From Mytilus trossulus (Eukaryota): a stretch of 64,000 nucleotides of DNA. Position 1 is the stretch's first letter, and every line of letters starts with the position of its first letter. The notes under the pieces were generated by a model. That model did not search any database and had not been told where the DNA came from. It worked only from the letters and a program-made list of their open reading frames with translations. The stretch is from positions 33,914,001 through 33,978,000 of the forward strand of contig NC_086378.1 of NCBI RefSeq assembly GCF_036588685.1. Reading direction: 5' to 3'. Below are positions 1-39,206 of this stretch, in pieces. The translations under genes and the position numbers were made by a program.

Positions 1-23
1 GAATCTACAGATTTTGTGTGTAA

Positions 24-81
24 AAGTCCGTGCATTTTGTTTTGAAATTTTCTCTCTTTATGTAGGCAAATGCACGGACTT
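24..81. repeat. 14-bp perfect inverted repeat with 30-nt spacer; present in every unit
   Basis: AAGTCCGTGCATTT (24-37) and AAATGCACGGACTT (68-81). Confidence 0.9.
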
Positions 82-182
82 GTTGATCTTTGAACGTATT
101 CATAAACCTTCAGAAATATAAATTCTCAAATAAATACAAGAGTAAGAGTAAGGAAGTTAATTAAAAAGAAAGCCAGATATTT

Positions 183-251
183 AAAAAAAAAAAGGGGGGG
201 GGGGGGGGGGGGGGGGGGGGTAATAGCGAGAGAGAGAGAGAGAGAGAGAGA
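183..251 (+). repeat. A11-G27-(GA)12 homopurine tract in the H2B-H4 spacer
   Basis: Direct reading; shorter form (about G14-15, (GA)5) in units after the first gap. Confidence 0.9.
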
Positions 252-386
252 AAATAGTTGCGGATCAGGATCAGGGAAAACAAGAAAACGGTTGAAAAAT
301 TCATGAACATTAGAGAAAAGAATAGAAGTGGGAGCAAGCTTTGATTTCAAGATTTTGTTTAAAACGATGTACAACAAATCTAAGAT

Positions 387-422
387 TCTTTTTGAAAAAT
401 GTTGGTGGCCCTGAAAAGGGCC
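387..422 (-). terminator. H4 3' histone stem-loop (SLBP site) plus purine-rich HDE; repeated in every unit
   Basis: GGCCCTTTTCAGGGCC (407-422) then ACCA and AAAAAGA (387-393) on the sense strand. Confidence 0.95.
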
Positions 423-448
423 GTTGTTGATATTAGCTGGGTGGCTGT

Positions 449-945
<497 letters not shown>

Positions 946-2358
946 CTTTTTCATTCTAGGTCTGAAAAATATAATAATTCATATCAGACAGTAAATTTTT
1001 AAGAAAAAACTATAATTGAACAGAAAAAAACTTTCAATCGGAATAAAAATGACTGCAGGAGACAAAAAAAGTTCCAAAATGTTGAAAAGTTTTCATTTTA
1101 AGATAGAAAAGTATGATAAATAAATGATAAATGAAAATCACTTTAGACAGTCAAAATTATAAAGATAATTATTTGCTTTCTCTGAACAGACATTTTTATT
1201 CAATGTCAATACACATTTCAACTTAATGGAATGGAATTTAGTTGGGGAAAAAATAAACCTCACAGACATATCTAGGAATACTGGTTATCTATTTGTCTAT
1301 TTCATGTACCCAGAAATTGGATACATCACAGGATTTTACATGCTTGCAGTTTTCTACCTGTCTTTCATAACTCAACATCATCTGTCAAAGCTGTGCTTGC
1401 CATCCATCAAAGATCTGCTGCAGGTACTTCAGATCATAAATGAGAGAATGTATGAATAAAACTGTTATTGTTATTACTATTAAAGAATATTTTTTTTAGG
1501 TATTACAGTGAAGAAAAGAGATGCCCCTGACTGCGGGTAAAACTTCTTATGTGTGCATCTTCCTTTCAATTTTATTTTTAAACGCCATTCTATATTTATC
1601 CACAGTATGACGATGACAATTTCATCAGCCAATCCAATAAAAATGTTAATGCGCACACATGTACTTACTATTCTGAAGACATCTTTTAGCCAGAAAAGTT
1701 TATAATAAGTCTGAAAACTACTTTTTATCATATAAAAAAGCTTATAAGTGCAAGATATATGCTTACATGGACTTCCTACAGTGAAATTTTGTGGGGACTA
1801 CTTGGACCCGTACCGAAATTATATTAATTTAAATAGAAATTTCATGATTTTGTAAACTAGCAGCAAGACAAGACTCTAAAGTGGACAAAATATATTACTA
1901 CATACATGATAAAAAAATTCTTTACAATTCTGACTGAAAAAGAGCTCTAAATTTTTGATAAAAGTACCCTGTAATATCAGCTTTTCTAAAAGAAATATAC
2001 AAATTAATGATTTATACAAGATATTTAAACTCTAACTTAAAAAAAAAGGTTATATTTTGGCCAGTTGGTGGTTCTCTTTCTTTGGTCTAGACTACTGGTG
2101 TAAATAATACATCAAAAGAAGACAAGAAAAAACAAGCGAAGAAAAGAAAAGAACAGAAGTACAGATAGAAACATTCATATGTTGATCTTTTTTTATATAA
2201 TGTACTATTTAATATTCTACACACAAGGACATACATGTACCATGATAAACAAACACCCCCCTTTTTTTTGTGATGAGACTTGCGTGTATATATATATCAT
2301 AAAATTTATTTTTTGTCTATGTATTGCTTTGCATATAGATGGATTCAACAAGAAGAAA

Positions 2359-2363
<5 letters not shown>

Positions 2364-2393
<30 letters not shown>
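2364..2393 (+). repeat. (GA)15 microsatellite downstream of H3
   Basis: Direct reading; about (GA)7 in later units. Confidence 0.9.
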
Positions 2394-2396
<3 letters not shown>

Positions 2397-2450
2397 GGAA
2401 AAGAGGGGTTCAGCTATGTTTCTAATTTTCATGTACAACAATTTATAGAT

Positions 2451-2486
2451 TCTTTTTGAAAAATATTGGTGGCCCTGAAAAGGGCC
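2451..2486 (-). terminator. H3 3' histone stem-loop plus HDE; repeated in every unit
   Basis: GGCCCTTTTCAGGGCC (2471-2486) ACCA...AAAAAGA. Confidence 0.95.
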
Positions 2487-2515
2487 GTTATGTTTTGGTG
2501 AAAAAATCACACTTC

Positions 2516-3125
<610 letters not shown>

Positions 3126-4140
3126 TTTACTGAAAAACTGCTCAACCCAAGCTGACAGTAAAAATGCCCCCTTTTTTCATTCAAAATTACAGTTTCTGAT
3201 CATCATCCCTCATTGCTCAACAATAGTAAATTAGTGTCACGGTTTCAATATGATAAATCTGAAGAAGAAAAAAATAATAATGAAAAAAGGTCAAAATACA
3301 TGCAGAAACATTAAGGAAAGGAAAGAAAAATAAAACAGGAAAAAATAAAAATAAAATGCAGTTTGAACACTAACAAAGCGAAATAAGAAATGCAAAAACA
3401 GAAACAAATGGAATTACACATTCCCGACATGACATTGTACGGATCGGCTGAGTTTCTCTATTGTTGTATTATGTCATATTTATGTATATTTAATATAAAA
3501 AAAGAAGATGTGGTATGATTTTCATTTGGGCTGGGCACATTTGTCACATTGTCTGATTGTCGGTGTGCTTACATCGATTCCACATCTTTAATACACAAAC
3601 AATAAATAAATAAAGACAGAAAGACAGAGAGAGATGCCGAAAAAAAATGGAAAAAGGAAAAGAATGGAAAGTACATATCATATATAAAAGTGTTGACGAA
3701 AGAGATACTGTTAACAAAAACTATAAATAATTATAATAATTAAAAAACACACACCTTCTCATATGAATCTAAGCATGCTCGCATCAATAACCAAGAGAGA
3801 GAAAGAAGAGAGCAGACTAGTATTAAATATAAATGCTATCAGTGGTTTTTTTTTTCCCCCGACAAACTTTTTATGATTTAACTGAGCTACTAGTGGGTTC
3901 AGAGTCAGAAATTACGACAATAAATGTTCTCATGAAGAAGACTGAAAAAGTTACTAGACTTAGTGTTATGCTATAAGAACTGTACTTAAATGGGATGCGT
4001 TAGAGAGAGAAGAAAAGAAGAATGACGGAAGAAGGGACATTTATATTTTAGACATTTTTTATTTGTTATGTAGTAGAATATATTTTTTTTAATTATGTAT
4101 GGGGAATAAAGTATTACTAAGATGTACAACAATTTTAGAC

Positions 4141-4176
4141 TCTTTTTGAAAAATATTGGTGGCCCTGAAAAGGGCC
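4141..4176 (-). terminator. H2A 3' histone stem-loop plus HDE; repeated in every unit
   Basis: GGCCCTTTTCAGGGCC (4161-4176) ACCA...AAAAAGAG. Confidence 0.95.
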
Positions 4177-4209
4177 GTTGTTAAGTGAGTAATCTGATAT
4201 ATCCACTTT

Positions 4210-4863
<654 letters not shown>

Positions 4864-5238
4864 ATGCCACCCAAAGTAGGAACTAAAGGAGCCAAGAAGG
4901 CCGTCACCAAGGCAAAGACTGCCAGACCCGGCGGTGACAAGAAAAGGAGGAGGAAGAGACGTGAATCCTATGCTATCTACATCTACAAAGTCTTGAGACA
5001 AGTTCACCCCGACACCGGAGTGTCCTCAAAGGCAATGTCCATCATGAACAGCTTCGTCAACGATATCTTCGAGAGAATCGCAGCAGAGGCTTCCCGATTG
5101 GCACACTACAACAAAAGATCTACCATCACATCTCGGGAGATCCAGACCGCTGTCCGTCTTCTCTTACCCGGAGAATTGGCCAAGCACGCTGTCAGTGAAG
5201 GTACCAAAGCCGTCACTAAATACACCAGCAGCAAGTAA
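4864..5238 (+). CDS. H2B: Histone H2B
   Basis: ATG at 4864 (ORF track extends upstream to a TTG); 124 aa [12 protein letters not shown]...AVTKYTSSK. Confidence 0.99.
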
Positions 5239-5266
5239 ACAGTCTGAAGTTTATAACTTCACAAAC

Positions 5267-5302
5267 GGCCCTTTTCAGGGCCACCAACATTTTTCAAAAA
5301 GA
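5267..5302 (+). terminator. H2B 3' histone stem-loop plus HDE; repeated in every unit
   Basis: GGCCCTTTTCAGGGCC (5267-5282) ACCA...AAAAAGA. Confidence 0.95.
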
Positions 5303-5855
5303 ATTTACAATTGTTGTACATCATGTCAAACTTCTAAACAAAGCTATAAATCCCAACCCCCAGCTATAACTACTTTCAAACTATTTCAATAGTATATGGT
5401 TACTTTTCTCTTCTTTCTATCTGTATAACAAATATGTGTATTTCACTCATTCTGTAGTATTTAATTTGTCAAAACTACAAAGCGTAAATACATAAATCAT
5501 GAAGAACAAAACAGTGCTTTCATTCCAATTAATAGAGTTGATAAATTTACGATTTCTTTTGCTTTTCGAGAGAGAAAAAAATATTGCGAGAATTATTTTA
5601 CACGGAAACAAGAACATTACCTAATCTTAAACCACGCAAAAACTCTATAATTGAATATAACAGAATCTACAGATTTTGTGTGTAAAAGTCCGTGCATTTT
5701 GTTTTGAAATTTTCTCTCTTTATGTAGGCAAATGCACGGACTTGTTGATCTTTGAACGTATTCATAAACCTTCAGAAATATAAATTCTCAAATAAATACA
5801 AGAGTAAGAGTAAGGAAGTTAATTAAAAAGAAAGCCAGATATTTAAAAAAAAAAA

Positions 5856-5886
<31 letters not shown>

Positions 5887-6113
5887 AATAGCGAGAGAGA
5901 GAGAGAGAGAGAGAGAAAATAGTTGCGGATCAGGATCAGGGAAAACAAGAAAACGGTTGAAAAATTCATGAACATTAGAGAAAAGAATAGAAGTGGGAGC
6001 AAGCTTTGATTTCAAGATTTTGTTTAAAACGATGTACAACAAATCTAAGATTCTTTTTGAAAAATGTTGGTGGCCCTGAAAAGGGCCGTTGTTGATATTA
6101 GCTGGGTGGCTGT

Positions 6114-6431
<318 letters not shown>

Positions 6432-7658
6432 CTATTTGTGGTGATTAGTTAAATAATACTTTCCGTCTAACAGCGACTCTTTATATATCACCAACGCGGC
6501 CGTAAAAGAAGTATCACACATTTTCAGTTAACTGTTGTCTGATTGGCTTACGTTGTTTTATTCCGGGAGGTAACTCTGTACTGCCTTAAACTGTGTACAC
6601 TTTCAATCCACTTTTTCATTCTAGGTCTGAAAAATATAATAATTCATATCAGACAGTAAATTTTTAAGAAAAAACTATAATTGAACAGAAAAAAACTTTC
6701 AATCGGAATAAAAATGACTGCAGGAGACAAAAAAAGTTCCAAAATGTTGAAAAGTTTTCATTTTAAGATAGAAAAGTATGATAAATAAATGATAAATGAA
6801 AATCACTTTAGACAGTCAAAATTATAAAGATAATTATTTGCTTTCTCTGAACAGACATTTTTATTCAATGTCAATACACATTTCAACTTAATGGAATGGA
6901 ATTTAGTTGGGGAAAAAATAAACCTCACAGACATATCTAGGAATACTGGTTATCTATTTGTCTATTTCATGTACCCAGAAATTGGATACATCACAGGATT
7001 TTACATGCTTGCAGTTTTCTACCTGTCTTTCATAACTCAACATCATCTGTCAAAGCTGTGCTTGCCATCCATCAAAGATCTGCTGCAGGTACTTCAGATC
7101 ATAAATGAGAGAATGTATGAATAAAACTGTTATTGTTATTACTATTAAAGAATATTTTTTTTAGGTATTACAGTGAAGAAAAGAGATGCCCCTGACTGCG
7201 GGTAAAACTTCTTATGTGTGCATCTTCCTTTCAATTTTATTTTTAAACGCCATTCTATATTTATCCACAGTATGACGATGACAATTTCATCAGCCAATCC
7301 AATAAAAATGTTAATGCGCACACATGTACTTACTATTCTGAAGACATCTTTTAGCCAGAAAAGTTTATAATAAGTCTGAAAACTACTTTTTATCATATAA
7401 AAAAGCTTATAAGTGCAAGATATATGCTTACATGGACTTCCTACAGTGAAATTTTGTGGGGACTACTTGGACCCGTACCGAAATTATATTAATTTAAATA
7501 GAAATTTCATGATTTTGTAAACTAGCAGCAAGACAAGACTCTAAAGTGGACAAAATATATTACTACATACATGATAAAAAAATTCTTTACAATTCTGACT
7601 GAAAAAGAGCTCTAAATTTTTGATAAAAGTACCCTGTAATATCAGCTTTTCTAAAAGA

Positions 7659-7758
7659 NNNNNNNNNNNNNNNNNNNNNNNNNNNNNNNNNNNNNNNNNN
7701 NNNNNNNNNNNNNNNNNNNNNNNNNNNNNNNNNNNNNNNNNNNNNNNNNNNNNNNNNN
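7659..7758. other. Assembly gap (100 N)
   Basis: Run of N; separates unit variant A from variant B. Confidence 0.99.
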
Positions 7759-8092
7759 ATAGAAACATTTATATGTTGATCTTTTTTATATAATGTACTA
7801 TTTAATATTCTACACACAAGGACATACATGTACCATGATAAACAAACACCCCCCTTTTTTTTGTGATGAGACTTGTGTGTATATATATATCATAAAATTT
7901 ATTTTTTGTCTATGTATTGCTTTGCATATAGATGGATTCAACAAGAAGAAATAAAAGAGAGAGAGAGAGATGGGGAAAAGAGGGGTTCGGCTATGTTTCT
8001 AATTTTCATGTACAACAATTTATAGATTCTTTTTGAAAAATATTGGTGGCCCTGAAAAGGGCCGTTATGTTTTGGTGAAAAAATCACACTTC

Positions 8093-8650
<558 letters not shown>

Positions 8651-9790
8651 TTAAATCTGATTGGACTGATTTGTAAGGGACTTTGACAGTTTTCAATCCA
8701 TTTTTTACTGAAAAACTGCTCAACCCAAGCTGACAGTAAAAATGCCCCCTTTTTTCATTCATAATTACAGTTTCTGATCATCCCTCATAGCTCAACAATA
8801 GTAAATTAGTGTCACGGTTTCAATATGATAAATCTGAAGAAGAAAAATAATAATAATGAAAAAAGGTCAAAATACATGCAGAAACATTAAGGAAAGGAAC
8901 GAAAAATAAAAACAGGAAAAAATAAAAATAAAATGCAGTTATAACACAAACAAAGCGAAATAAAAATAAAAAACAGAAACAAATGGAATTACACATTCCC
9001 GACATGACATTGTGCGGATCGGCTGAGTTTCTTTATTGTTGTATTATGTCATATTTATGTATATTTAATATAAAAAAAGAAGATGTGGTATGATTTTCAT
9101 TTGGGCTGGGCACATTTGTCACATTGTCTGATTGTCGGTGTGCTTACATCAATTCCACATCTTTAATACACAAACAATAACTAAATAAAGACAGAAAGAC
9201 AGAGAGAGAGATGCTGAAAAAAATGGAAAAAGGAAAAGAATGGAAAGTACATATCATATATAAAAGTGTTGACGAAAGAGATAATGTTAACAAAAACTAT
9301 AAATAATTATAATAATAAAAAAAAACCACACACCTTCTCAGATGAATCTAAGCATGCTCGCATCAATAACCAAGAGAGAGAAAGAAGAGAGCAGACTAGT
9401 ATTAAATATAAATACTATCAGTGGTTTTTTTTTCCCCCCGACAAACATTATATGATTTAACTGAGCTACTTGTGGGTTCAAAGAGTCAGAAAGTACGACA
9501 ATAAATGTTCTGATGAAGAAGACTGAAAAAGTTACTAGACTTAGTGTTATGCTATAAGAACTGTACTTAAATGGGATGCGTTAGAGAGAGAAGAAAAGAA
9601 GAATCACGGAAGAAGGGACATTTATATTTTAGACATTTTTTATTTGTTATGTAGTAGAATATATTTTTTTCAATTATGTATGGGGAATAAAGTATTACTA
9701 AGATGTACAACAATTTTAGACTCTTTTTGAAAAATATTGGTGGCCCTGAAAAGGGCCGTTGTTAAGTGAGTAATCCGATATATCCACTTT

Positions 9791-10174
<384 letters not shown>

Positions 10175-10444
10175 CTATTTGGTTGATCGACACTGAGTAA
10201 AGTGATACAATTTTTCTTCAAAATTTAGCTTATATACCCACTAAACGGATTGAACGATGTTTTTATTATACACCAATCAGAACGAAGCTCTCTGCGAGCA
10301 GTTAGGCTACCGAACATTCAACATGTTATGGGTGCTCTCTCCGAGGTTCGCGTTTAATAAAATCTTTCAATCCGTTTTGCCCAGTATATAAACAAATTGA
10401 AAATAATTTTTCACCATTACTTATTTGATTATCAAACCAGTAAC

Positions 10445-10819
10445 ATGCCACCCAAAGTAGGAACTAAAGGAGCCAAGAAGGCCGTCACCAAGGCAAAGAC
10501 TGCCAGACCCGGCGGTGATAAGAAAAGGAGGAGGAAGAGACGTGAATCCTATGCTATCTACATCTACAAAGTCTTGAGACAAGTTCACCCCGACACCGGA
10601 GTGTCCTCAAAGGCAATGTCCATCATGAACAGCTTCGTCAACGATATCTTCGAGAGAATCGCAGCAGAGGCTTCCCGATTGGCACACTACAACAAAAGAT
10701 CTACCATCACATCCCGGGAGATCCAGACCGCTGTCCGTCTTCTCTTACCCGGAGAATTGGCCAAGCACGCTGTCAGTGAAGGTACCAAAGCCGTCACTAA
10801 ATACACCAGCAGCAAGTAA
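10445..10819 (+). CDS. H2B: Histone H2B
   Basis: Identical 124-aa H2B. Confidence 0.99.
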
Positions 10820-11671
10820 ACAGTCTGAAGTTTATAACTTCACAAACGGCCCTTTTCAGGGCCACCAACATTTTTCAAAAAGAATTTACATTTGTTGTAC
10901 ATCAATGTCAAACTTCTAAACAAAGCTATAAATCCCAACCCCAGCTATAACCACTTTCAAACTATTTCAATAGTATATGGTTACTTTTCTCTTCTTTCTA
11001 TCTGTATAACAAATATACGTGTATTTCACTCATTCTGTAGCATTTAATTTGTCTGTCAAAACTACAAAGCGTAAATACATAAATCATGAAGAACAAAACA
11101 GTGCTTTCATTCCAATTAATAGAGTTGATAAATTTACGATTTCTTTTGCTTTTCGAGAGAAAAAAAATATTGCGAGAATTATTTTACACGGAAACAAGAA
11201 CATTACCTAATCTTAAACCACGCAAAAAAAAACCTCTATAATTGAATATAACAGAATCTACAGATTTTGTGTGTAAAAGTCCGTGCATTTTGTTTTGAAA
11301 TTTTCTCTCTTCATGTAGGCAAATGCACGGACTTGATCTTTGAACGTATTCATAAACCTTCAGAAATATAAATTCTCAAATAAATACAAGAGTAAGAGTA
11401 AGGAAGTTAATTAAAAAGAAAGCCAGATATTTAAAAAAAAAAAGGGGGGGGGGGGGGTATAACGAGAGAGAGAAAATAGTTGCGGATCAGGATCAGGGAA
11501 AACAAGAAAAACGGTTGAAAAATTCATGAACATTAGAGAAAAGAATAGAAGTGGGAGCAAGCTTTGATTTCAAGATTTTGTTTAAAACGATGTACAACAA
11601 ATCTAAGATTCTTTTTGAAAAATGTTGGTGGCCCTGAAAAGGGCCGTTGTTGATATTAGCTGGGTGGCTGT

Positions 11672-11989
<318 letters not shown>

Positions 11990-13709
11990 CTATTTGTGGT
12001 GATTAGTTAAATAATACTTTCCGTCTAACAGCGACTCTTTATATATCACCAACGCGGCCGTAAAAGAAGTATCACACATTTTCAGTTAACTGTTGTCTGA
12101 TTGGCTTACGTTGTTTTATTCCGGGAGGTAACTCTGTACTGCCTTAAACTGTGTACACTTTCAATCCACTTTTTCATTCTAGGTCTGAAAAATATAATAA
12201 TTCATATCAGACAGTAAATTTTTAAGAAAAAACTATTATTTCAATCGGAATAAAAATGACTGAAGGAGACAAAAAAAGTTCCAAAATGTTGAAAAGTTTT
12301 CATTTTAAGATAGAATAGTATGATAAATAAATGATAAATGAAAATCACTTTAGACAGTCAAAATTATAAAGATAATTATTTGCTTTCTCTGAACAGACAT
12401 TTTCATTCAATGACAATACACATTTCAACTTAATGGAATGGAATTTAGTTGGGGGAAAAAATAAACCTCACAGACATATCTAGGAATACTGGTTATCTAT
12501 TTGTCTATTTGATGTATCCAGAAATTGGATACATCACAGGATTTTACATGCTTGCAGTTTTCTACCTGTCTTTCATAACTCAACATCATCTGTCAAAGCT
12601 GTGCTTGCCATCCATCAACGATCTGCTGCAGGTACTTCAGATCATAAATGGGAGAATGTATGAATAAAACTGTTACTGTTATTACTATTAAAAGATTTTT
12701 TTTTCTAGGTATTACAGTGAAGAAAAGAGATGCCCCTGACTGCGGGTAAAACTTCTTATGTGTGCATCTTCCTTTCAATTTTATTTTTAAACGCCATTCT
12801 ATATTTATCCACAGTATGACGATGACAATTTCATCAGCCAATCCAATAAAAATGTTAATGCGCACACATGTACTTACTATTCTGAAGACTTCTTTTAGCC
12901 AGAAAAGTTTATAATAAGTCTGAAAACCACTTTTTATCATATAAAAAAGCTTATAAGTGCAAGATATATGCTTACATGGACTTCCTACATTGAAATTTTG
13001 TGGGGACTACTTGGACCCGTACCGAAATTATATTAATTTAAAATAGAAATTTCATGATTTTGTTAACTAGCAGCAAGACAAGACTCTAAAGTGGACAAAA
13101 TATATTACTACATACATGATAAAAAAATTCTTTACAATTCTGACTGAAAAAGAGCTCTAAATTTTTGATAAAAGTACCCTGTAATATCAGCTTTTCTAAA
13201 AGAAATATTCAAATTAATGAATTATACAAGATATTTAAACTCTAACTTAAAAAAAAAGGTTATATTTTGGCCAGTTGGTGGTTCTCTTTCTTTGGTCTAG
13301 ACTACTGGTGTAAATAATACATCAAAAGAAGACAAGACAAAACAAGCGAAGAAAAGAAAAGAACAGAAGTACAGATAGAAACATTTATATGTTGATCTTT
13401 TTTTATATAATGTACTATTTAATATTCTACACACAAGGACATACATGTACCATGATAAACAAACACCCCCCTTTTTTTTGTGATGAGACTTGTGTGTATA
13501 TATATATCATAAAATTTATTTTTTGTCTATGTATTGCTTTGCATATAGATGGATTCAACAAGAAGAAATAAAAGAGAGAGAGAGAGATGGGGAAAAGAGG
13601 GGTTCGGCTATGTTTCTAATTTTCATGTACAACAATTTATAGATTCTTTTTGAAAAATATTGGTGGCCCTGAAAAGGGCCGTTATGTTTTGGTGAAAAAA
13701 TCACACTTC

Positions 13710-14225
<516 letters not shown>

Positions 14226-15406
14226 TCACCACTTACATAAAGCTGGCGTTGATTGGTCCGCATATCTTAAATCTGATTGGACTGATTTGTAAGGGACTTT
14301 GACAGTTTTCAATCCATTTTTTACTGAAAAACTGCTCAACCCAAGCTGACAGTAAAAATGCCCCCTTTTTTCATTCATAATTACAGTTTCTGATCATCCC
14401 TCATAGCTCAACAATAGTAAATTAGTGTCACGGTTTCAATATGATAAATCTGAAGAAGAAAAATAATAATAATGAAAAAAGGTCAAAATACATGCAGAAA
14501 CATTAAGGAAAGGAACGAAAAATAAAAACAGGAAAAAATAAAAATAAAATGCAGTTATAACACAAACAAAGCGAAATAAAAATAAAAAAACAGAAACAAA
14601 TGGAATTACACATTCCCGACATGACATTGTGCGGATCGGCTGAGTTTCTTTATTGTTGTATTATGTCATATTTATGTATATTTAATATAAAAAAAGAAGA
14701 TGTGGTATGATTTTCATTTGGGCTGGGCACATTTGTCACATTGTCTGATTGTCGGTGTGCTTACATCAATTCCACATCTTTAATACACAAACAATAACTA
14801 AATAAAGACAGAAAGACAGAGAGAGAGATGCTGAAAAAAATGGAAAAAGGAAAAGAATGGAAAGTACATATCATATATAAAAGTGTTGACGAAAGAGATA
14901 ATGTTAACAAAAACTATAAATAATTATAATAATAAAAAAAAACCACACACCTTCTCAGATGAATCTAAGCATGCTCGCATCAATAACCAAGAGAGAGAAA
15001 GAAGAGAGCAGACTAGTATTAAATATAAATACTATCAGTGGTTTTTTTTCCCCCCGACAAACATTATATGATTTAACTGAGCTACTTGTGGGTTCAAAGA
15101 GTCAGAAAGTACGACAATAAATGTTCTGATGAAGAAGACTGAAAAAGTTACTAGACTTAGTGTTATGCTATAAGAACTGTACTTAAATGGGATGCGTTAG
15201 AGAGAGAAGAAAAGAAGAATCACGGAAGAAGGGACATTTATATTTTAGACATTTTTTATTTGTTATGTAGTAGAATATATTTTTTTCAATTATGTATGGG
15301 GAATAAAGTATTACTAAGATGTACAACAATTTTAGACTCTTTTTGAAAAATATTGGTGGCCCTGAAAAGGGCCGTTGTTAAGTGAGTAATCCGATATATC
15401 CACTTT

Positions 15407-15790
<384 letters not shown>

Positions 15791-16060
15791 CTATTTGGTT
15801 GATCGACACTGAGTAAAGTGATACAATTTTTCTTCAAAATTTAGCTTATATACCCACTAAACGGATTGAACGATGTTTTTATTATACACCAATCAGAACG
15901 AAGCTCTCTGCGAGCAGTTAGGCTACCGAACATTCAACATGTTATGGGTGCTCTCTCCGAGGTTCGCGTTTAATAAAATCTTTCAATCCGTTTTGCCCAG
16001 TATATAAACAAATTGAAAATAATTTTTCACCATTACTTATTTGATTATCAAACCAGTAAC

Positions 16061-16435
16061 ATGCCACCCAAAGTAGGAACTAAAGGAGCCAAGAAGGCCG
16101 TCACCAAGGCAAAGACTGCCAGACCCGGCGGTGATAAGAAAAGGAGGAGGAAGAGACGTGAATCCTATGCTATCTACATCTACAAAGTCTTGAGACAAGT
16201 TCACCCCGACACCGGAGTGTCCTCAAAGGCAATGTCCATCATGAACAGCTTCGTCAACGATATCTTCGAGAGAATCGCAGCAGAGGCTTCCCGATTGGCA
16301 CACTACAACAAAAGATCTACCATCACATCCCGGGAGATCCAGACCGCTGTCCGTCTTCTCTTACCCGGAGAATTGGCCAAGCACGCTGTCAGTGAAGGTA
16401 CCAAAGCCGTCACTAAATACACCAGCAGCAAGTAA
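16061..16435 (+). CDS. H2B: Histone H2B
   Basis: Identical 124-aa H2B. Confidence 0.99.
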
Positions 16436-17288
16436 ACAGTCTGAAGTTTATAACTTCACAAACGGCCCTTTTCAGGGCCACCAACATTTTTCAAAAAGAA
16501 TTTACATTTGTTGTACATCAATGTCAAACTTCTAAACAAAGCTATAAATCCCAACCCCAGCTATAACCACTTTCAAACTATTTCAATAGTATATGGTTAC
16601 TTTTCTCTTCTTTCTATCTGTATAACAAATATACGTGTATTTCACTCATTCTGTAGCATTTAATTTGTCTGTCAAAACTACAAAGCGTAAATACATAAAT
16701 CATGAAGAACAAAACAGTGCTTTCATTCCAATTAATAGAGTTGATAAATTTACGATTTCTTTTGCTTTTCGAGAGAAAAAAAATATTGCGAGAATTATTT
16801 TACACGGAAACAAGAACATTACCTAATCTTAAACCACGCAAAAAAAACCTCTATAATTGAATATAACAGAATCTACAGATTTTGTGTGTAAAAGTCCGTG
16901 CATTTTGTTTTGAAATTTTCTCTCTTCATGTAGGCAAATGCACGGACTTGATCTTTGAACGTATTCATAAACCTTCAGAAATATAAATTCTCAAATAAAT
17001 ACAAGAGTAAGAGTAAGGAAGTTAATTAAAAAGAAAGCCAGATATTTAAAAAAAAAAAGGGGGGGGGGGGGGGTATAACGAGAGAGAGAAAATAGTTGCG
17101 GATCAGGATCAGGGAAAACAAGAAAAACGGTTGAAAAATTCATGAACATTAGAGAAAAGAATAGAAGTGGGAGCAAGCTTTGATTTCAAGATTTTGTTTA
17201 AAACGATGTACAACAAATCTAAGATTCTTTTTGAAAAATGTTGGTGGCCCTGAAAAGGGGCCGTTGTTGATATTAGCTGGGTGGCTGT

Positions 17289-17606
<318 letters not shown>

Positions 17607-19330
17607 CTATTTGTGGTGATTAGTTAAATAATACTTTCCGTCTAACAGCGACTCTTTATATATCACCAACGCGGCCGTAAAAGAAGTATCACACATTTTC
17701 AGTTAACTGTTGTCTGATTGGCTTACGTTGTTTTATTCCGGGAGGTAACTCTGTACTGCCTTAAACTGTGTACACTTTCAATCCACTTTTTCATTCTAGG
17801 TCTGAAAAATATAATAATTCATATCAGACAGTAAATTTTTAGAAGAAAAAACTATTATTTCAATCGGAATAAAAATGACTGAAGGAGACAAAAAAAGTTC
17901 CAAAATGTTGAAAAGTTTTCATTTTAAGATAGAATAGTATGATAAATAAATGATAAATGAAAATCACTTTAGACAGTCAAAATTATAAAGATAATTATTT
18001 GCTTTCTCTGAACAGACATTTTCATTCAATGACAATACACATTTCAACTTAATGGAATGGAATTTAGTTGGGGAAAAAAATAAACCTCACAGACATATCT
18101 AGGAATACTGGTTATCTATTTGTCTATTTGATGTATCCAGAAATTGGATACATCACAGGATTTTACATGCTTGCAGTTTTCTACCTGTCTTTCATAACTC
18201 AACATCATCTGTCAAAGCTGTGCTTGCCATCCATCAACGATCTGCTGCAGGTACTTCAGATCATAAATGGGAGAATGTATGAATAAAACTGTTACTGTTA
18301 TTACTATTAAAGATTTTTTTTTCTAGGTATTACAGTGAAGAAAAGAGATGCCCCTGACTGCGGGTAAAACTTCTTATGTGTGCATCTTCCTTTCAATTTT
18401 ATTTTTAAACGCCATTCTATATTTATCCACAGTATGACGATGACAATTTCATCAGCCAATCCAATAAAATTGTTAATGCGCACACATGTACTTACTATTC
18501 TGAAGACTTCTTTTAGCCAGAAAAGTTTATAATAAGTCTGAAAACCACTTTTTAATCATATAAAAAAGCTTATAAGTGCAAGATATATGCTTACATGGAC
18601 TTCCTACATTGAAATTTTGTGGGGACTACTTGGACCCGTACCGAAATTATATTAATTTAAATAGAAATTTCATGATTTTGTTAACTAGCAGCAAGACAAG
18701 ACTCTAAAGTGGACAAAATATATTACTACATACATGATAAAAAAAATTCTTTACAATTCTGACTGAAAAAGAGCTCTAAATTTTTGATAAAAGTACCCTG
18801 TAATATCAGCTTTTCTAAAAGAAATATTCAAATTAATGAATTATACAAGATATTTAAACTCTAACTTAAAAAAAAAGGTTATATTTTGGCCAGTTGGTGG
18901 TTCTCTTTCTTTGGTCTAGACTACTGGTGTAAATAATACATCAAAAGAAGACAAGACAAAACAAGCGAAGAAAAGAAAAGAACAGAAGTACAGATAGAAA
19001 CATTTATATGTTGATCTTTTTTTATATAATGTACTATTTAATATTCTACACACAAGGACATACATGTACCATGATAAACAAACACCCCCCCTTTTTTTTT
19101 GTGATGAGACTTGTGTGTATATATATATCATAAAATTTATTTTTTGTCTATGTATTGCTTTGCATATAGATGGATTCAACAAGAAGAAATAAAAGAGAGA
19201 GAGAGAGATGGGGAAAAGAGGGGTTCGGCTATGTTTCTAATTTTCATGTACAACAATTTATAGATTCTTTTTGAAAAATATTGGTGGCCCTGAAAAGGGC
19301 CGTTATGTTTTGGTGAAAAAATCACACTTC

Positions 19331-19846
<516 letters not shown>

Positions 19847-21023
19847 TCACCACTTACATAAAGCTGGCGTTGATTGGTCCGCATATCTTAAATCTGATTG
19901 GACTGATTTGTAAGGGACTTTGACAGTTTTCAATCCATTTTTTACTGAAAAACTGCTCAACCCAAGCTGACAGTAAAAATGCCCCCTTTTTTCATTCATA
20001 ATTACAGTTTCTGATCATCCCTCATAGCTCAACAATAGTAAATTAGTGTCACGGTTTCAATATGATAAATCTGAAGAAGAAAAATAATAATAATGAAAAA
20101 AGGTCAAAATACATGCAGAAACATTAAGGAAAGGAACGAAAAATAAAAACAGGAAAAAATAAAAATAAAATGCAGTTATAACACAAACAAAGCGAAATAA
20201 AAATAAAAAAACAGAAACAAATGGAATTACACATTCCCGACATGACATTGTGCGGATCGGCTGAGTTTCTTTATTGTTGTATTATGTCATATTTATGTAT
20301 ATTTAATATAAAAAAAGAAGATGTGGTATGATTTTCATTTGGGCTGGGCACATTTGTCACATTGTCTGATTGTCGGTGTGCTTACATCAATTCCACATCT
20401 TTAATACACAAACAATAACTAAATAAAGACAGAAAGACAGAGAGAGAGATGCTGAAAAAAATGGAAAAAGGAAAAGAATGGAAAGTACATATCATATATA
20501 AAAGTGTTGACGAAAGAGATAATGTAACAAAAACTATAAATAATTATAATAATAAAAAAAAACCACACACCTTCTCAGATGAATCTAAGCATGCTCGCAT
20601 CAATAACCAAGAGAGAGAAAGAAGAGAGCAGACTAGTATTAAATATAAATACTATCAGTGGTTTTTTTTCCCCCCGACAAACATTATATGAAACTGAGCT
20701 ACTTGTGGGTTCAAAGAGTCAGAAAGTACGACAATAAATGTTCTGATGAAGAAGACTGAAAAAGTTACTAGACTTAGTGTTATGCTATAAGAACTGTACT
20801 TAAATGGGATGCGTTAGAGAGAGAAGAAAAGAAGAATCACGGAAGAAGGGACATTTATATTTTAGACATTTTTTATTTGTTATGTAGTAGAATATATTTT
20901 TTTCAATTATGTATGGGGAATAAAGTATTACTAAGATGTACAACAATTTTAGACTCTTTTTGAAAAATATTGGTGGCCCTGAAAAGGGCCGTTGTTAAGT
21001 GAGTAATCCGATATATCCACTTT

Positions 21024-21407
<384 letters not shown>

Positions 21408-21677
21408 CTATTTGGTTGATCGACACTGAGTAAAGTGATACAATTTTTCTTCAAAATTTAGCTTATATACCCACTAAACGGATTGAACGATGTTTTTATT
21501 ATACACCAATCAGAACGAAGCTCTCTGCGAGCAGTTAGGCTACCGAACATTCAACATGTTATGGGTGCTCTCTCCGAGGTTCGCGTTTAATAAAATCTTT
21601 CAATCCGTTTTGCCCAGTATATAAACAAATTGAAAATAATTTTTCACCATTACTTATTTGATTATCAAACCAGTAAC

Positions 21678-22053
21678 ATGCCACCCAAAGTAGGAACTAA
21701 AGGAGCCAAGAAGGCCGTCACCAAGGCAAAGACTGCCAGACCCGGCGGTGATAAGAAAAGGAGGAGGAGAGAGACGTGAATCCTATGCTATCTACATCTA
21801 CAAAGTCTTGAGACAAGTTCACCCCGACACCGGAGTGTCCTCAAAGGCAATGTCCATCATGAACAGCTTCGTCAACGATATCTTCGAGAGAATCGCAGCA
21901 GAGGCTTCCCGATTGGCACACTACAACAAAAGATCTACCATCACATCCCGGGAGATCCAGACCGCTGTCCGTCTTCTCTTACCCGGAGAATTGGCCAAGC
22001 ACGCTGTCAGTGAAGGTACCAAAGCCGTCACTAAATACACCAGCAGCAAGTAA
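21678..22053 (+). pseudogene. H2B: Histone H2B copy with +1 frameshift (possibly a sequencing error)
   Basis: 376 nt instead of 375; aggaggaagagacgt reads aggaggagagagacgt near 21768. Confidence 0.6.
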
Positions 22054-22905
22054 ACAGTCTGAAGTTTATAACTTCACAAACGGCCCTTTTCAGGGCCACC
22101 AACATTTTTCAAAAAGAATTTACATTTGTTGTACATCAATGTCAAACTTCTAAACAAAGCTATAAATCCCAACCCCAGCTATAACCACTTTCAAACTATT
22201 TCAATAGTATATGGTTACTTTTCTCTTCTTTCTATCTGTATAACAAATATACGTGTATTTCACTCATTCTGTAGCATTTAATTTGTCTGTCAAAACTACA
22301 AAGCGTAAATACATAAATCATGAAGAACAAAACAGTGCTTTCATTCCAATTAATAGAGTTGATAAATTTACGATTTCTTTTGCTTTTCGAGAGAAAAAAA
22401 ATATTGCGAGAATTATTTTACACGGAAACAAGAACATTACCTAATCTTAAACCACGCAAAAAAAACCTCTATAATTGAATATAACAGAATCTACAGATTT
22501 TGTGTGTAAAAGTCCGTGCATTTTGTTTTGAAATTTTCTCTCTTCATGTAGGCAAATGCACGGACTTGATCTTTGAACGTATTCATAAACCTTCAGAAAT
22601 ATAAATTCTCAAATAAATACAAGAGTAAGAGTAAGGAAGTTAATTAAAAAGAAAGCCAGATATTTAAAAAAAAAAAGGGGGGGGGGGGGGGTATAACGAG
22701 AGAGAGAAAATAGTTGCGGATCAGGATCAGGGAAAACAAGAAAAACGGTTGAAAAATTCATGAACATTAGAGAAAAGAATAGAAGTGGGAGCAAGCTTTG
22801 ATTTCAAGATTTTGTTTAAAACGATGTACAACAAATCTAAGATTCTTTTTGAAAAATGTTGGTGGCCCTGAAAAGGGCCGTTGTTGATATTAGCTGGGTG
22901 GCTGT

Positions 22906-23223
<318 letters not shown>

Positions 23224-24940
23224 CTATTTGTGGTGATTAGTTAAATAATACTTTCCGTCTAACAGCGACTCTTTATATATCACCAACGCGGCCGTAAAAG
23301 AAGTATCACACATTTTCAGTTAACTGTTGTCTGATTGGCTTACGTTGTTTTATTCCGGGAGGTAACTCTGTACTGCCTTAAACTGTGTACACTTTCAATC
23401 CACTTTTTCATTCTAGGTCTGAAAAATATAATAATTCATATCAGACAGTAAATTTTTAAGAAAAAACTATTATTTCAATCGGAATAAAAATGACTGAAGG
23501 AGACAAAAAAAGTTCCAAAATGTTGAAAAGTTTTCATTTTAAGATAGAATAGTATGATAAATAAATGATAAATGAAAATCACTTTAGACAGTCAAAATTA
23601 TAAAGATAATTATTTGCTTTCTCTGAACAGACATTTTCATTCAATGACAATACACATTTCAACTTAATGGAATGGAATTTAGTTGGGGAAAAAATAAACC
23701 TCACAGACATATCTAGGAATACTGGTTATCTATTTGTCTATTTGATGTATCCAGAAATTGGATACATCACAGGATTTTACATGCTTGCAGTTTTCTACCT
23801 GTCTTTCATAACTCAACATCATCTGTCAAAGCTGTGCTTGCCATCCATCAACGATCTGCTGCAGGTACTTCAGATCATAAATGGGAGAATGTATGAATAA
23901 AACTGTTACTGTTATTACTATTAAAGATTTTTTTTTCTAGGTATTACAGTGAAGAAAAGAGATGCCCCTGACTGCGGGTAAAACTTCTTATGTGTGCATC
24001 TTCCTTTCAATTTTATTTTTAAACGCCATTCTATATTTATCCACAGTATGACGATGACAATTTCATCAGCCAATCCAATAAAAATGTTAATGCGCACACA
24101 TGTACTTACTATTCTGAAGACTTCTTTTAGCCAGAAAAGTTTATAATAAGTCTGAAAACCACTTTTTATCATATAAAAAAGCTTATAAGTGCAAGATATA
24201 TGCTTACATGGACTTCCTACATTGAAATTTTGTGGGGACTACTTGGACCCGTACCGAAATTATATTAATTTAAATAGAAATTTCATGATTTTGTTAACTA
24301 GCAGCAAGACAAGACTCTAAAGTGGACAAAATATATTACTACATACATGATAAAAAAATTCTTTACAATTCTGACTGAAAAAGAGCTCTAAATTTTTGAT
24401 AAAAGTACCCTGTAATATCAGCTTTTCTAAAAGAAATATTCAAATTAATGAATTATACAAGATATTTAAACTCTAACTTAAAAAAAAAGGTTATATTTTG
24501 GCCAGTTGGTGGTTCTCTTTCTTTGGTCTAGACTACTGGTGTAAATAATACATCAAAAGAAGACAAGACAAAACAAGCGAAGAAAAGAAAAGAACAGAAG
24601 TACAGATAGAAACATTTATATGTTGATCTTTTTTTATATAATGTACTATTTAATATTCTACACACAAGGACATACATGTACCATGATAAACAAACACCCC
24701 CCTTTTTTTTGTGATGAGACTTGTGTGTATATATATATCATAAAATTTATTTTTTGTCTATGTATTGCTTTGCATATAGATGGATTCAACAAGAAGAAAT
24801 AAAAGAGAGAGAGAGAGATGGGGAAAAGAGGGGTTCGGCTATGTTTCTAATTTTCATGTACAACAATTTATAGATTCTTTTTGAAAAATATTGGTGGCCC
24901 TGAAAAGGGCCGTTATGTTTTGGTGAAAAAATCACACTTC

Positions 24941-25456
<516 letters not shown>

Positions 25457-26637
25457 TCACCACTTACATAAAGCTGGCGTTGATTGGTCCGCATATCTTA
25501 AATCTGATTGGACTGATTTGTAAGGGACTTTGACAGTTTTCAATCCATTTTTTACTGAAAAACTGCTCAACCCAAGCTGACAGTAAAAATGCCCCCTTTT
25601 TTCATTCATAATTACAGTTTCTGATCATCCCTCATAGCTCAACAATAGTAAATTAGTGTCACGGTTTCAATATGATAAATCTGAAGAAGAAAAATAATAA
25701 TAATGAAAAAAGGTCAAAATACATGCAGAAACATTAAGGAAAGGAACGAAAAATAAAAACAGGAAAAAATAAAAATAAAATGCAGTTATAACACAAACAA
25801 AGCGAAATAAAAATAAAAAAACAGAAACAAATGGAATTACACATTCCCGACATGACATTGTGCGGATCGGCTGAGTTTCTTTATTGTTGTATTATGTCAT
25901 ATTTATGTATATTTAATATAAAAAAAGAAGATGTGGTATGATTTTCATTTGGGCTGGGCACATTTGTCACATTGTCTGATTGTCGGTGTGCTTACATCAA
26001 TTCCACATCTTTAATACACAAACAATAACTAAATAAAGACAGAAAGACAGAGAGAGAGATGCTGAAAAAAATGGAAAAAGGAAAAGAATGGAAAGTACAT
26101 ATCATATATAAAAGTGTTGACGAAAGAGATAATGTTAACAAAAACTATAAATAATTATAATAATAAAAAAAAACCACACACCTTCTCAGATGAATCTAAG
26201 CATGCTCGCATCAATAACCAAGAGAGAGAAAGAAGAGAGCAGACTAGTATTAAATATAAATACTATCAGTGGTTTTTTTTCCCCCCGACAAACATTATAT
26301 GATTTAACTGAGCTACTTGTGGGTTCAAAGAGTCAGAAAGTACGACAATAAATGTTCTGATGAAGAAGACTGAAAAAGTTACTAGACTTAGTGTTATGCT
26401 ATAAGAACTGTACTTAAATGGGATGCGTTAGAGAGAGAAGAAAAGAAGAATCACGGAAGAAGGGACATTTATATTTTAGACATTTTTTATTTGTTATGTA
26501 GTAGAATATATTTTTTTCAATTATGTATGGGGAATAAAGTATTACTAAGATGTACAACAATTTTAGACTCTTTTTGAAAAATATTGGTGGCCCTGAAAAG
26601 GGCCGTTGTTAAGTGAGTAATCCGATATATCCACTTT

Positions 26638-27021
<384 letters not shown>

Positions 27022-27291
27022 CTATTTGGTTGATCGACACTGAGTAAAGTGATACAATTTTTCTTCAAAATTTAGCTTATATACCCACTAAACGGATTGA
27101 ACGATGTTTTTATTATACACCAATCAGAACGAAGCTCTCTGCGAGCAGTTAGGCTACCGAACATTCAACATGTTATGGGTGCTCTCTCCGAGGTTCGCGT
27201 TTAATAAAATCTTTCAATCCGTTTTGCCCAGTATATAAACAAATTGAAAATAATTTTTCACCATTACTTATTTGATTATCAAACCAGTAAC

Positions 27292-27666
27292 ATGCCACCC
27301 AAAGTAGGAACTAAAGGAGCCAAGAAGGCCGTCACCAAGGCAAAGACTGCCAGACCCGGCGGTGATAAGAAAAGGAGGAGGAAGAGACGTGAATCCTATG
27401 CTATCTACATCTACAAAGTCTTGAGACAAGTTCACCCCGACACCGGAGTGTCCTCAAAGGCAATGTCCATCATGAACAGCTTCGTCAACGATATCTTCGA
27501 GAGAATCGCAGCAGAGGCTTCCCGATTGGCACACTACAACAAAAGATCTACCATCACATCCCGGGAGATCCAGACCGCTGTCCGTCTTCTCTTACCCGGA
27601 GAATTGGCCAAGCACGCTGTCAGTGAAGGTACCAAAGCCGTCACTAAATACACCAGCAGCAAGTAA
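27292..27666 (+). CDS. H2B: Histone H2B
   Basis: Identical 124-aa H2B. Confidence 0.99.
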
Positions 27667-28518
27667 ACAGTCTGAAGTTTATAACTTCACAAACGGCCCT
27701 TTTCAGGGCCACCAACATTTTTCAAAAAGAATTTACATTTGTTGTACATCAATGTCAAACTTCTAAACAAAGCTATAAATCCCAACCCCAGCTATAACCA
27801 CTTTCAAACTATTTCAATAGTATATGGTTACTTTTCTCTTCTTTCTATCTGTATAACAAATATACGTGTATTTCACTCATTCTGTAGCATTTAATTTGTC
27901 TGTCAAAACTACAAAGCGTAAATACATAAATCATGAAGAACAAAACAGTGCTTTCATTCCAATTAATAGAGTTGATAAATTTACGATTTCTTTTGCTTTT
28001 CGAGAGAAAAAAAATATTGCGAGAATTATTTTACACGGAAACAAGAACATTACCTAATCTTAAACCACGCAAAAAAAACCTCTATAATTGAATATAACAG
28101 AATCTACAGATTTTGTGTGTAAAAGTCCGTGCATTTTGTTTTGAAATTTTCTCTCTTCATGTAGGCAAATGCACGGACTTGATCTTTGAACGTATTCATA
28201 AACCTTCAGAAATATAAATTCTCAAATAAATACAAGAGTAAGAGTAAGGAAGTTAATTAAAAAGAAAGCCAGATATTTAAAAAAAAAAAGGGGGGGGGGG
28301 GGGGTATAACGAGAGAGAGAAAATAGTTGCGGATCAGGATCAGGGAAAACAAGAAAAACGGTTGAAAAATTCATGAACATTAGAGAAAAGAATAGAAGTG
28401 GGAGCAAGCTTTGATTTCAAGATTTTGTTTAAAACGATGTACAACAAATCTAAGATTCTTTTTGAAAAATGTTGGTGGCCCTGAAAAGGGCCGTTGTTGA
28501 TATTAGCTGGGTGGCTGT

Positions 28519-28836
<318 letters not shown>

Positions 28837-30157
28837 CTATTTGTGGTGATTAGTTAAATAATACTTTCCGTCTAACAGCGACTCTTTATATATCACCAAC
28901 GCGGCCGTAAAAGAAGTATCACACATTTTCAGTTAACTGTTGTCTGATTGGCTTACGTTGTTTTATTCCGGGAGGTAACTCTGTACTGCCTTAAACTGTG
29001 TACACTTTCAATCCACTTTTTCATTCTAGGTCTGAAAAATATAATAATTCATATCAGACAGTAAATTTTTAAGAAAAAACTATTATTTCAATCGGAATAA
29101 AAAATGACTGAAGGAGACAAAAAAAGTTCCAAAATGTTGAAAAGTTTTCATTTTAAGATAGAATAGTATGATAAATAAATGATAAATGAAAATCACTTTA
29201 GACAGTCAAAATTATAAAGATAATTATTTGCTTTCTCTGAACAGACATTTTCATTCAATGACAATACACATTTCAACTTAATGGAATGGAATTTAGTTGG
29301 GGAAAAAATAAACCTCACAGACATATCTAGGAATACTGGTTATCTATTTGTCTATTTGATGTATCCAGAAATTGGATACATCACAGGATTTTACATGCTT
29401 GCAGTTTTCTACCTGTCTTTCATAACTCAACATCATCTGTCAAAGCTGTGCTTGCCATCCATCAACGATCTGCTGCAGGTACTTCAGATCATAAATGGGA
29501 GAATGTATGAATAAAACTGTTACTGTTATTACTATTAAAGATTTTTTTTTCTAGGTATTACAGTGAAGAAAAGAGATGCCCCTGACTGCGGGTAAAACTT
29601 CTTATGTGTGCATCTTCCTTTCAATTTTATTTTTAAAACGCCATTCTATATTTATCCACAGTATGACGATGACAATTTCATCAGCCAATCCAATAAAAAT
29701 GTTAATGCGCACACATGTACTTACTATTCTGAAGACTTCTTTTAGCCAGAAAAGTTTATAATAAGTCTGAAAACCACTTTTTATCATATAAAAAAGCTTA
29801 TAAGTGCAAGATATATGCTTACATGGACTTCCTACATTGAAATTTTGTGGGGACTACTTGGACCCGTACCGAAATTATATTAATTTAAATAGAAATTTCA
29901 TGATTTTGTTAACTAGCAGCAAGACAAGACTCTAAAGTGGACAAAATATATTACTACATACATGATAAAAAAATTCTTTACAATTCTGACTGAAAAAGAG
30001 CTCTAAATTTTTGATAAAAGTACCCTGTAATATCAGCTTTTCTAAAAGAAATATTCAAATTAATGAATTATACAAGATATTTAAACTCTAACTTAAAAAA
30101 AAAGGTTATATTTTGGCCAGTTGGTGGTTCTCTTTCTTTGGTCTAGACTACTGGTGT

Positions 30158-30257
30158 NNNNNNNNNNNNNNNNNNNNNNNNNNNNNNNNNNNNNNNNNNN
30201 NNNNNNNNNNNNNNNNNNNNNNNNNNNNNNNNNNNNNNNNNNNNNNNNNNNNNNNNN
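30158..30257. other. Assembly gap (100 N) at the array inversion point
   Basis: Run of N; orientation flips across it. Confidence 0.99.
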
Positions 30258-31401
30258 TTGTAAAGAAGTTTTTTATCATGTATGTAGTAATATATTTTGT
30301 CCACTTAGAGTCTTGTCTTGCTGCTAGTTAACAAAATCATGAAATTTCTATTTAAATTAATATAATTTCGGTACGGGTCCAAGTAGTCCCCACAAAATTT
30401 CAATGTAGGAAGTCCATGTAAGCATATATCTTGCACTTATAAGCTTTTTTATATGATATAAAGTGGTTTCAGACTTATTATAAACTTTTCTGGCTAAAAG
30501 AAGTCTTCAGAATAGTAAGTACATGTGTGCGCATTAACATTTTTATTGGATTGGCTGATGAAATTGTCATCGTCATACTGTGGATAAATATAGAATAGGC
30601 GTTTAAAAATAAAATTGAAAGGAAGATGCACACATAAGAAGTTTTACCCGCAGTCAGGGGCATCTCTTTTCTTCACTGTAATACCTAGAAAAAAAAATCT
30701 TTAATAGTAATAACAGTAACAGTTTTATTCATACATTCTCCCATTTATGATCTGAAGTACCTGCAGCAGATCGTTGATGGATGGCAAGCACAGCTTTGAC
30801 AGATGATGTTGAGTTATGAAAGACAGGTAGAAAACTGCAAGCATGTAAAATCCTGTGATGTATCCAATTTCTGGATACATCAAATAGACAAATAGATAAC
30901 CAGTATTCCTAGATATGTCTGTGAGGTTTATTTTTTCCCCAACTAAATTCCATTCCATTAAGTTGAAATGTGTATTGTCATTGAATGAAAATGTCTGTTC
31001 AGAGAAAGCAAATAATTATCTTTATAATTTTGACTGTCTAAAGTGATTTTCATTTATCATTTATTTATCATACTATTCTATCTTAAAATGAAAACTTTTC
31101 AACATTTTGGAACTTTTTTTGTCTCCTTCAGTCATTTTTATTCCGATTGAAATAATAGTTTTTTCTTAAAAATTTACTGTCTGATATGAATTATTATATT
31201 TTTCAGACCTAGAATGAAAAAGTGGATTGAAAGTGTACACAGTTTAAGGCAGTACAGAGTTACCTCCCGGAATAAAACAACGTAAGCCAATCAGACAACA
31301 GTTAACTGAAAATGTGTGATACTTCTTTTACGGCCGCGTTGGTGATATATAAAGAGTCGCTGTTAGACGGAAAGTATTATTTAACTAATCACCACAAATA
31401 G

Positions 31402-31717
<316 letters not shown>

Positions 31718-32940: not shown

Positions 32941-33161
32941 GTTACTGGTTTGTATAATCAAGTAAGTAATGGTGAAAAATTATTTTCAATTTGTTTATAT
33001 ACTGGGCAAAACGGATTGAAAGATTTTATTAAACGCGAACCTCGGAGAGAGCACCCATAACATGTTGAATGTTCGGTAGCCTAACTGCTCGCAGAGAGCT
33101 TCGTTCTGATGGTGTATAATAAAAACATCGTTCAAATCCGTTTAGTGGGTATATAAGCTAA

Positions 33162-33620
<459 letters not shown>

Positions 33621-34731: not shown

Positions 34732-35298
<567 letters not shown>

Positions 35299-37007: not shown

Positions 37008-37325
<318 letters not shown>

Positions 37326-38176: not shown

Positions 38177-38552
<376 letters not shown>

Positions 38553-38822: not shown

Positions 38823-39206
<384 letters not shown>

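Follow-up and report, generated by a model that had tools for sequence, protein, structure and literature searches.

The window, by which we mean the whole stretch of 64,000 nucleotides analysed here, is filled (1..64000) by a tandem array of H4-H3-H2A-H2B quartets with a repeat unit of ~5.6 kb. The array is homogenised, and neither H1 nor 5S was found within these 64 kb. Near 30 kb the quartets change orientation at an inverted repeat of ~1.7 kb, made up of H4 with flanking sequence (28437-31799, similarity ratio 0.935), and an assembly gap of Ns lies near 60590. Seven of the 34 histone ORFs matched by their start motif, in scattered copies, are altered in length, probably through homopolymer errors. 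Each histone gene ends in a cassette consisting of a stem-loop, an HDE and a third element further downstream. The relevant features are listed below.

367..422, minus strand: H4 cassette (stem-loop 407-422, 11-mer 367-377)
2431..2486, minus strand: H3 cassette (stem-loop 2471-2486, 11-mer 2431-2441)
4122..4176, minus strand: H2A cassette (stem-loop 4161-4176, 11-mer 4122-4132)
4864..5238, plus strand: H2B coding sequence, intronless, 124 amino acids by translation
5267..5282, plus strand: H2B histone stem-loop, 16 nt, the SLBP site by sequence (RF00032, 42.4 bits at 5262-5306)
5283..5287, plus strand: ACCAA tail of H2B by sequence; predicted cleavage after about 5287, following the rule of a 4-5 nt tail (PMC7491329)
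5293..5302, plus strand: H2B HDE core TTCAAAAAGA (mean pairwise identity 0.93, 20 families)
5303..5310, plus strand: variable spacer of H2B (length 6-10 nt depending on the family, loosely RTCT over the first 4 nt)
5311..5316, plus strand: distal core TTGTTG of H2B, the invariant part of the third element (identity 0.98; TGTTG in 20/20 families)
5317..5321, plus strand: TACAT tail of the H2B 11-mer, partly conserved (identity 0.50)

The preliminary description had placed an 11-mer, TTGTTGTACAT, at 367-377 (H4), 2431-2441 (H3), 4122-4132 (H2A) and 5311-5321 (H2B), and these four coordinates are correct. The window holds 46 exact copies of TTGTTGTACAT, as compared to a mean of 2.45 and a maximum of 7 in shuffled sequence with one mismatch permitted. 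Forty-four of them sit behind a stem-loop matched by Rfam RF00032, and 44 RF00032 matches in the window exceed the gathering score; of the remaining two copies, one follows a stem with an extra C and the other a stem broken by an assembly gap. The distance from stem to 11-mer is 28 nt in H2A and H2B and 29 nt in H3 and H4. This spacing, also part of the original claim, applies to most of the 46 copies, but three are shifted by 1 nt due to homopolymer indels, and the range widens to 26-29 nt across 19 families. Since the array is homogenised, the 46 copies amount to only four independent sequences. Therefore, independent cases were sought genome-wide in the 1.3-Gb assembly.

A pattern combining the HDE with the 11-mer gave 479 matches in the genome and none in the reversed control. 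A search by a stem-loop variant alone gave 270 matches genome-wide, and the loci examined come from the matches listed; reading 30 loci and 24 further regions yielded 32 distinct cassettes. In cassettes from this stem-loop-only search, TTGTT or TGTTG was present at the expected place in 25/25 with an HDE and in 0/7 without one. TGTTG occurs in 19/19 families (shuffle mean 0.19, maximum 3, 5000 shuffles) and in 20/20 once a Tc1-like family is added, although two of these 20, H1 and the Tc1-like family, were found by motif-containing patterns and are hence biased. Its position is invariably downstream and in sense orientation, at 26-29 nt past the stem in 19 families, and the HDE core ends 19-20 nt past the stem in 19/19. 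Across the 20 families, TTGTTG is better conserved than the HDE core (mean pairwise identity 0.98 versus 0.93), and the stem-loop reaches 0.85. The two ends of the spacer, which ranges from 6 to 10 nt in length, show 0.51 and 0.47, and identity on either side of the cassette does not exceed background (0.28 upstream, in the UTR, and 0.32 beyond TACAT). Stem sequences differ between families with every base pair retained, a pairing that the search pattern itself favours.

The exact 11-mer is present in 7/20 families. The invariant element is the hexamer TTGTTG and not the whole 11-mer, so that the element described as invariant does exist, with TGTTG in all families, but is smaller than had been stated. 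Because two conservation peaks flank a variable spacer, selection is favoured over block copying, which bears out the earlier preference for selection over gene conversion. That description would have taken an absence from other clusters or related species as a refutation, which did not come about, as the element is present in other clusters and in related mussels. We conclude that TTGTTG(TACAT) is a real, selected and lineage-specific extension of the known histone-type 3' signal. Some loci carry altered cassettes: the HDE and 11-mer are kept behind non-canonical stems at L399 and L414, both are still present where the stem is absent (L404, L413, L415), and at L420 they persist where an insertion has moved the stem away.

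Histone-type genes ahead of the cassette comprise H1, H2A.X and an H1-family protamine-like gene. Many non-histone ORFs end in it as well, mostly with the stop codon 22-62 nt before the stem, and dispersed non-histone loci outside the array carry the motif. Among these genes are Mutator-like transposases, a Tc1-like DDE transposase and a BEN-domain protein; one further cassette ORF has a weak GDSL-like match. Each copy of a tandem, intronless family of ~105 amino acids (L051-L053, L061, L068, L122), which has 21 unnamed homologues and no Pfam match, is followed by the cassette. At a distance of 50 nt behind the Tc1-like DDE_3 transposase (L387:498-1340, L390) come a variant stem, the HDE and the distal motif, with a 10-nt spacer. 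In at least four KolobokP families, the transposase ORF ends in a full cassette and is convergent with a His-Me nuclease. The loci are as follows:

L019, L043, L017, L128, L408 (contigs G000 C1, C4, C5, C9, C10, C48): KolobokP cassette loci

The L128 element is bounded by 451-bp terminal direct repeats (4113-4563 and 8531-8981) with ends GG..CC, in keeping with the 450-660 bp terminal direct repeats and RR..YY ends by which KolobokP is recognised. In L128/L019, the transposase matches PF20700 (E 1.8e-65) and the His-Me finger nuclease PF05551 (E 4.2e-10), and L128 matches KolobokP-6_MyEd of the PMC9587614 supplement by eye. Capture is the probable route by which the cassette came to the non-histone genes. 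At another locus (L016), a full cassette at 2976-3030 lies 1.9 kb from an ORF (4908-5573) with a weak Pox_A32 ATPase match (E 0.0015, below the cut-off), possibly part of a Polinton-like element.

An exact-text search of the KolobokP supplement of PMC9587614, in which line breaks may hide further cassettes, retrieved at least eight, all in the mytilid part and seven of them with TGTTG; in these consensus sequences the cassette ends the transposase. TGTTG is present in KolobokP-6_MyEd, KolobokP-7_MyEd and KolobokP-7_MoPh (Modiolus), and one Perna example, KolobokP-3_PeVi, has a cassette without it. No cassette was seen by eye in the end of KolobokP 5_MyEd or in the 1_BaPl, 1_PeVi and 2_PeVi consensus sequences of the same supplement. 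The cassette-bearing KolobokP elements may form one clade.

Metagenomes were scanned by stem-loop plus HDE, which gave 118 loci with 97 distinct complete cassettes. The mussel motif is found in 13/16 cassettes with a mussel-like HDE context and in 2/81 others. When loci were grouped by shared record prefixes, which are not necessarily species, other extensions emerged: TACCG in 5/5 families of one group, including a DDE_3 transposase (0/1000 shuffles, 0/110 outside loci); TGTCA in 4/6 families of another, with one short locus dropped (15/1000 shuffles, 0/108 outside); TGACA in 4/5 families of a third (2/1000 shuffles, 1/111 outside); and TGTTA in 4/4 families of a mussel-like group (0/1000 shuffles). 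A group with TTCGAAACA, reduced to three families, was not significant (200/1000 shuffles), and one mixed group had no shared motif (999/1000 shuffles). Hence, 4/6 groups, one of them mussel-like, have a significant extension of their own that is common to unrelated substrates. Among the metagenome contigs are transposase-like ORFs of other animals with a perfect stem-loop and HDE at their end, namely a DDE_3 (L193) and a weak ISXO2 match (L227). Three other ORFs of this kind (L189, L276, L218) may be Tc1- or Harbinger-like, judging by resemblance alone. A scan of IMG/VR gave 49 matches, none with a full stem.

Raw RNA reads amounting to about 6% of a run came from a single library made from a related species, a sample in which the 3' end is not resolved. 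Sense depth over H2B was 431-745 across most of the coding sequence, 7.8 at 5238-5293 and 0 at 5294-5405. The depth over H2A dropped to about 3 past the stem, in a UTR that differs in the read species. The motif is near absent from abundant mature H2B RNA. Reads over a KolobokP copy were mostly antisense across the transposase (about 16-44x versus 1-5x in central bins), and no read end was found at its stem, so that a processed transposase mRNA gains no support from these reads. At L128:5650-7200, 31 reads show a back-joint from 7125 to 5675, a pattern compatible with copies that are rearranged or deleted.

How can a third conserved block at this position be accounted for? We propose that the 5' arm of U7 snRNA pairs with a site in two parts, of which TTGTTG(TACAT) is the distal one, a proposal for which we regard the balance as even. 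It is favoured because the motif travels with the HDE, is fixed in strand and distance, and differs between lineages; such lineage-specificity is as expected for a fast-evolving RNA guide. In this mechanism, SLBP would bind the stem and U7 would pair first with the A-rich core TTCAAAAAGARTCT. A variable stretch of 2-6 nt would then bulge out and the U7 5' end would pair with TTGTTGTACAT, roughly doubling duplex stability, after which CPSF73 would cut 4-5 nt past the stem. Any gene using the pathway, transposases included, would need the motif.

Several precedents exist. The U7 5' end pairs with the loosely conserved HDE (PMC3884669), a 21-bp U7 duplex functions in vitro (PMC3884669, PMC7491329), and in known systems the 5' arm pairs beyond the purine core (PMC3884669, PMC7491329). 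The preliminary statement that a third element is not explained by the canonical model was therefore too strong. For this A-U-rich duplex, a modelled 29-nt arm pairs at -28.0 kcal/mol as against -13.4 for the core alone, values that show the gain only, since the arm was designed on these very data. It was also noticed, post hoc, that the conserved block often has CAT at its end, opposite which the first nucleotides of the snRNA would lie. Several findings count against the U7 site. The conservation dip in the spacer and its length of 6-10 nt also suit a separate protein site; the implied arm of ~29 nt would make U7 longer than the recorded 57-70 nt (PMC5054213); and 2/6 metagenome groups lack a significant motif, as the Perna example lacks TGTTG.

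U7 is fast-evolving and has not been identifiable outside four groups (PMC5054213). In nine genome searches, several with match lists examined in part, we found no U7 gene with either a long or a short arm. Rfam RF00066 gave no match in the genome and none in the controls either, and patterns joining the complement of the 11-mer to a U-rich Sm-like run returned solely further cassettes or chance matches. Long-arm patterns gave one match, a stem-less cassette (L018); 19 matches, all examined, without a U7 and with the H1 cassette as the best; and 39 matches, again without a U7 in the 30 loci examined, the other nine being identical tandem copies. Short-arm patterns likewise revealed no U7 among 14 matches, all examined, in 40 of 85 matches examined with flanks, in 40 of 91 matches examined, or in about 38 loci among the matches listed from a repeat-dominated set of 596. 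Adding a promoter consensus from U2 only gave 95 matches, with no U7 in up to 50 loci examined. None was found within 200 kb around the U2 genes, with Rfam run on 150 kb of those, or at loose read ends among the rows listed. One pair of loci (L345/L346) resembles a U7 core plus Sm site but was rejected, having neither promoter nor strong hairpin and lying behind a splice-acceptor-like run. The U2 genes (L099-L108) have a common upstream motif, AYACCNYNTC, near -59, from which a promoter model for mussel snRNAs could be seeded.

The assembly may lack the U7 gene, the core or Sm site of U7 may be unlike our patterns, or its arm may deviate from an exact complement. If the gene is in the assembly and its Sm site is ordinary, it cannot have an exact long arm. 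Since a short-arm U7 was likewise not found, the search does not discriminate between long- and short-arm models. Extended U7 pairing, one of the possibilities raised at the outset, is the best fit, and because no U7 gene was found we rate it no higher than even and keep a GU-rich protein site in consideration.

Such a site, for CstF64 or another UGUU-binding protein, would lie on the downstream cleavage product and aid cleavage or couple it to termination; we consider this unlikely, although it is the alternative that survives best. At poly(A) sites, CFIm recognises UGUA ahead of the cut and CstF a U/G-rich run behind it, and CstF64 belongs to the histone cleavage complex (PMC9756948). By sequence, a U/GU-rich run of the kind expected for a CstF64 downstream element does lie downstream of the predicted cut. 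The hexamer looks like a protein site in being invariant while its spacing ranges from 6 to 10 nt, and the genome searches turned up no complementary U7. On the other hand, the motifs at the same place in other animals differ and are non-GU, which one conserved protein would not predict, and cleavage proceeds without CstF64 both in vitro and in Drosophila cells (PMC7491329).

A DNA-level site for termination, pausing or a locus-body factor, its fixed distance being due to chance, is improbable. TGTACA is palindromic in the core histone copies, but conservation does not follow the palindrome (TGTA in 11/20 families), and the motif is kept in one orientation only, only with an HDE, and at dispersed non-histone loci outside the array; the last point in particular weakens the locus-body factor suggested earlier. 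We see about as little reason to assume that the third element has no function and that the 55-nt cassette was copied or converted as a block, with the 11-mer hitch-hiking. The array is indeed homogenised, and the non-histone genes probably captured the cassette, so that families are not fully independent. However, stems and spacers vary between families, the latter in sequence and length, while TTGTTG stays at 0.98 identity, and the motif is kept in Modiolus (PMC9587614). Very little speaks for intramolecular pairing with CAACA beside the stem, gating the cleavage site or HDE access: TGTTG is paired in most predicted folds, with a probability of ~0.5 for H4 and H2B with their ACCAACA tail, but the partner varies by family (-41 to +52) and there is no conserved helix. 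Least credible is the CFIm25 UGUA site for an alternative polyadenylated isoform put forward in the preliminary description: UGUA occurs in all four core histones and an AATAAA lies 68 nt past the H2A stem, but TGTA is found in 11/20 families only, no AATAAA or ATTAAA is present up to 384 nt from either the H4 or the H2B stem, and read-through depth past the H2B cassette is zero. An snRNA 3' box (Integrator) fits poorly, since at 10 U2 loci the 67 nt following the gene do not contain the motif.

Returning to the two-part U7 site, a wider scenario may be put forward tentatively, in which U7 reads a site of ~29 nt, the KolobokP, Tc1-like and orphan families have captured the signal, and their mRNAs carry no poly(A) tail, are bound by SLBP and are coupled to S phase. 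No literature report of the third motif or of histone-ended transposases was found; the original Mytilus histone papers, where a mention is possible, lay outside this search. The available parts of PMC12210499, PMC13525598, PMC6210712, PMC5011920 and PMC12360213 do not describe the third element, and the main text of the KolobokP paper (Kojima and Bao 2022, PMC9587614), as far as available, contains no mention of histone or stem-loop. The conserved distal block provides an 11-nt handle for finding the mussel U7 and a test of the possibility of bipartite U7 pairing; should a protein bind it instead, the model as it stands would be missing a factor. The retention of the block in transposase genes implies that use of the U7 pathway is selected for, and their cassettes argue against the view that histone mRNAs alone are processed in this way (PMC5054213). 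If the two-part U7 site and transposon capture are both true, the pathway would be a general invertebrate mode of expression and not restricted to histones. If the two-part site is true, the distal motif of each lineage would spell out the 5' end of its own U7.

With regard to known systems, L128 resembles the KolobokP DNA transposons (PMC9587614) in its 451-bp terminal direct repeats, Mutator-like transposase and convergent His-Me nuclease. The mussel motif resembles the U/GU-rich downstream element of poly(A) sites in being GU-rich and lying about 21-25 nt downstream of the predicted cut, but there is no upstream poly(A) signal, and its sequence is invariant within a lineage and different between lineages. 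As with the U7 5' arms of vertebrates, sea urchin and Drosophila, the proposed pairing reaches past the purine core and differs from lineage to lineage (PMC5054213, PMC3884669), whereas the implied mussel arm of ~29 nt would contain an internal bulge, and no such gene was found in the genome. The closest likeness is to the metazoan replication-dependent histone 3' signal. The cassette shares with it the 16-nt stem-loop (RF00032, SLBP), the ACC(C/A)A tail, the intronless genes and a purine-rich core ending 19-20 nt past the stem, the HDE read by the U7 snRNP. In contrast to that signal, the mussel cassette continues, 6-10 nt past the core, with a second invariant block that is better conserved than the core itself, and serves many non-histone ORFs.
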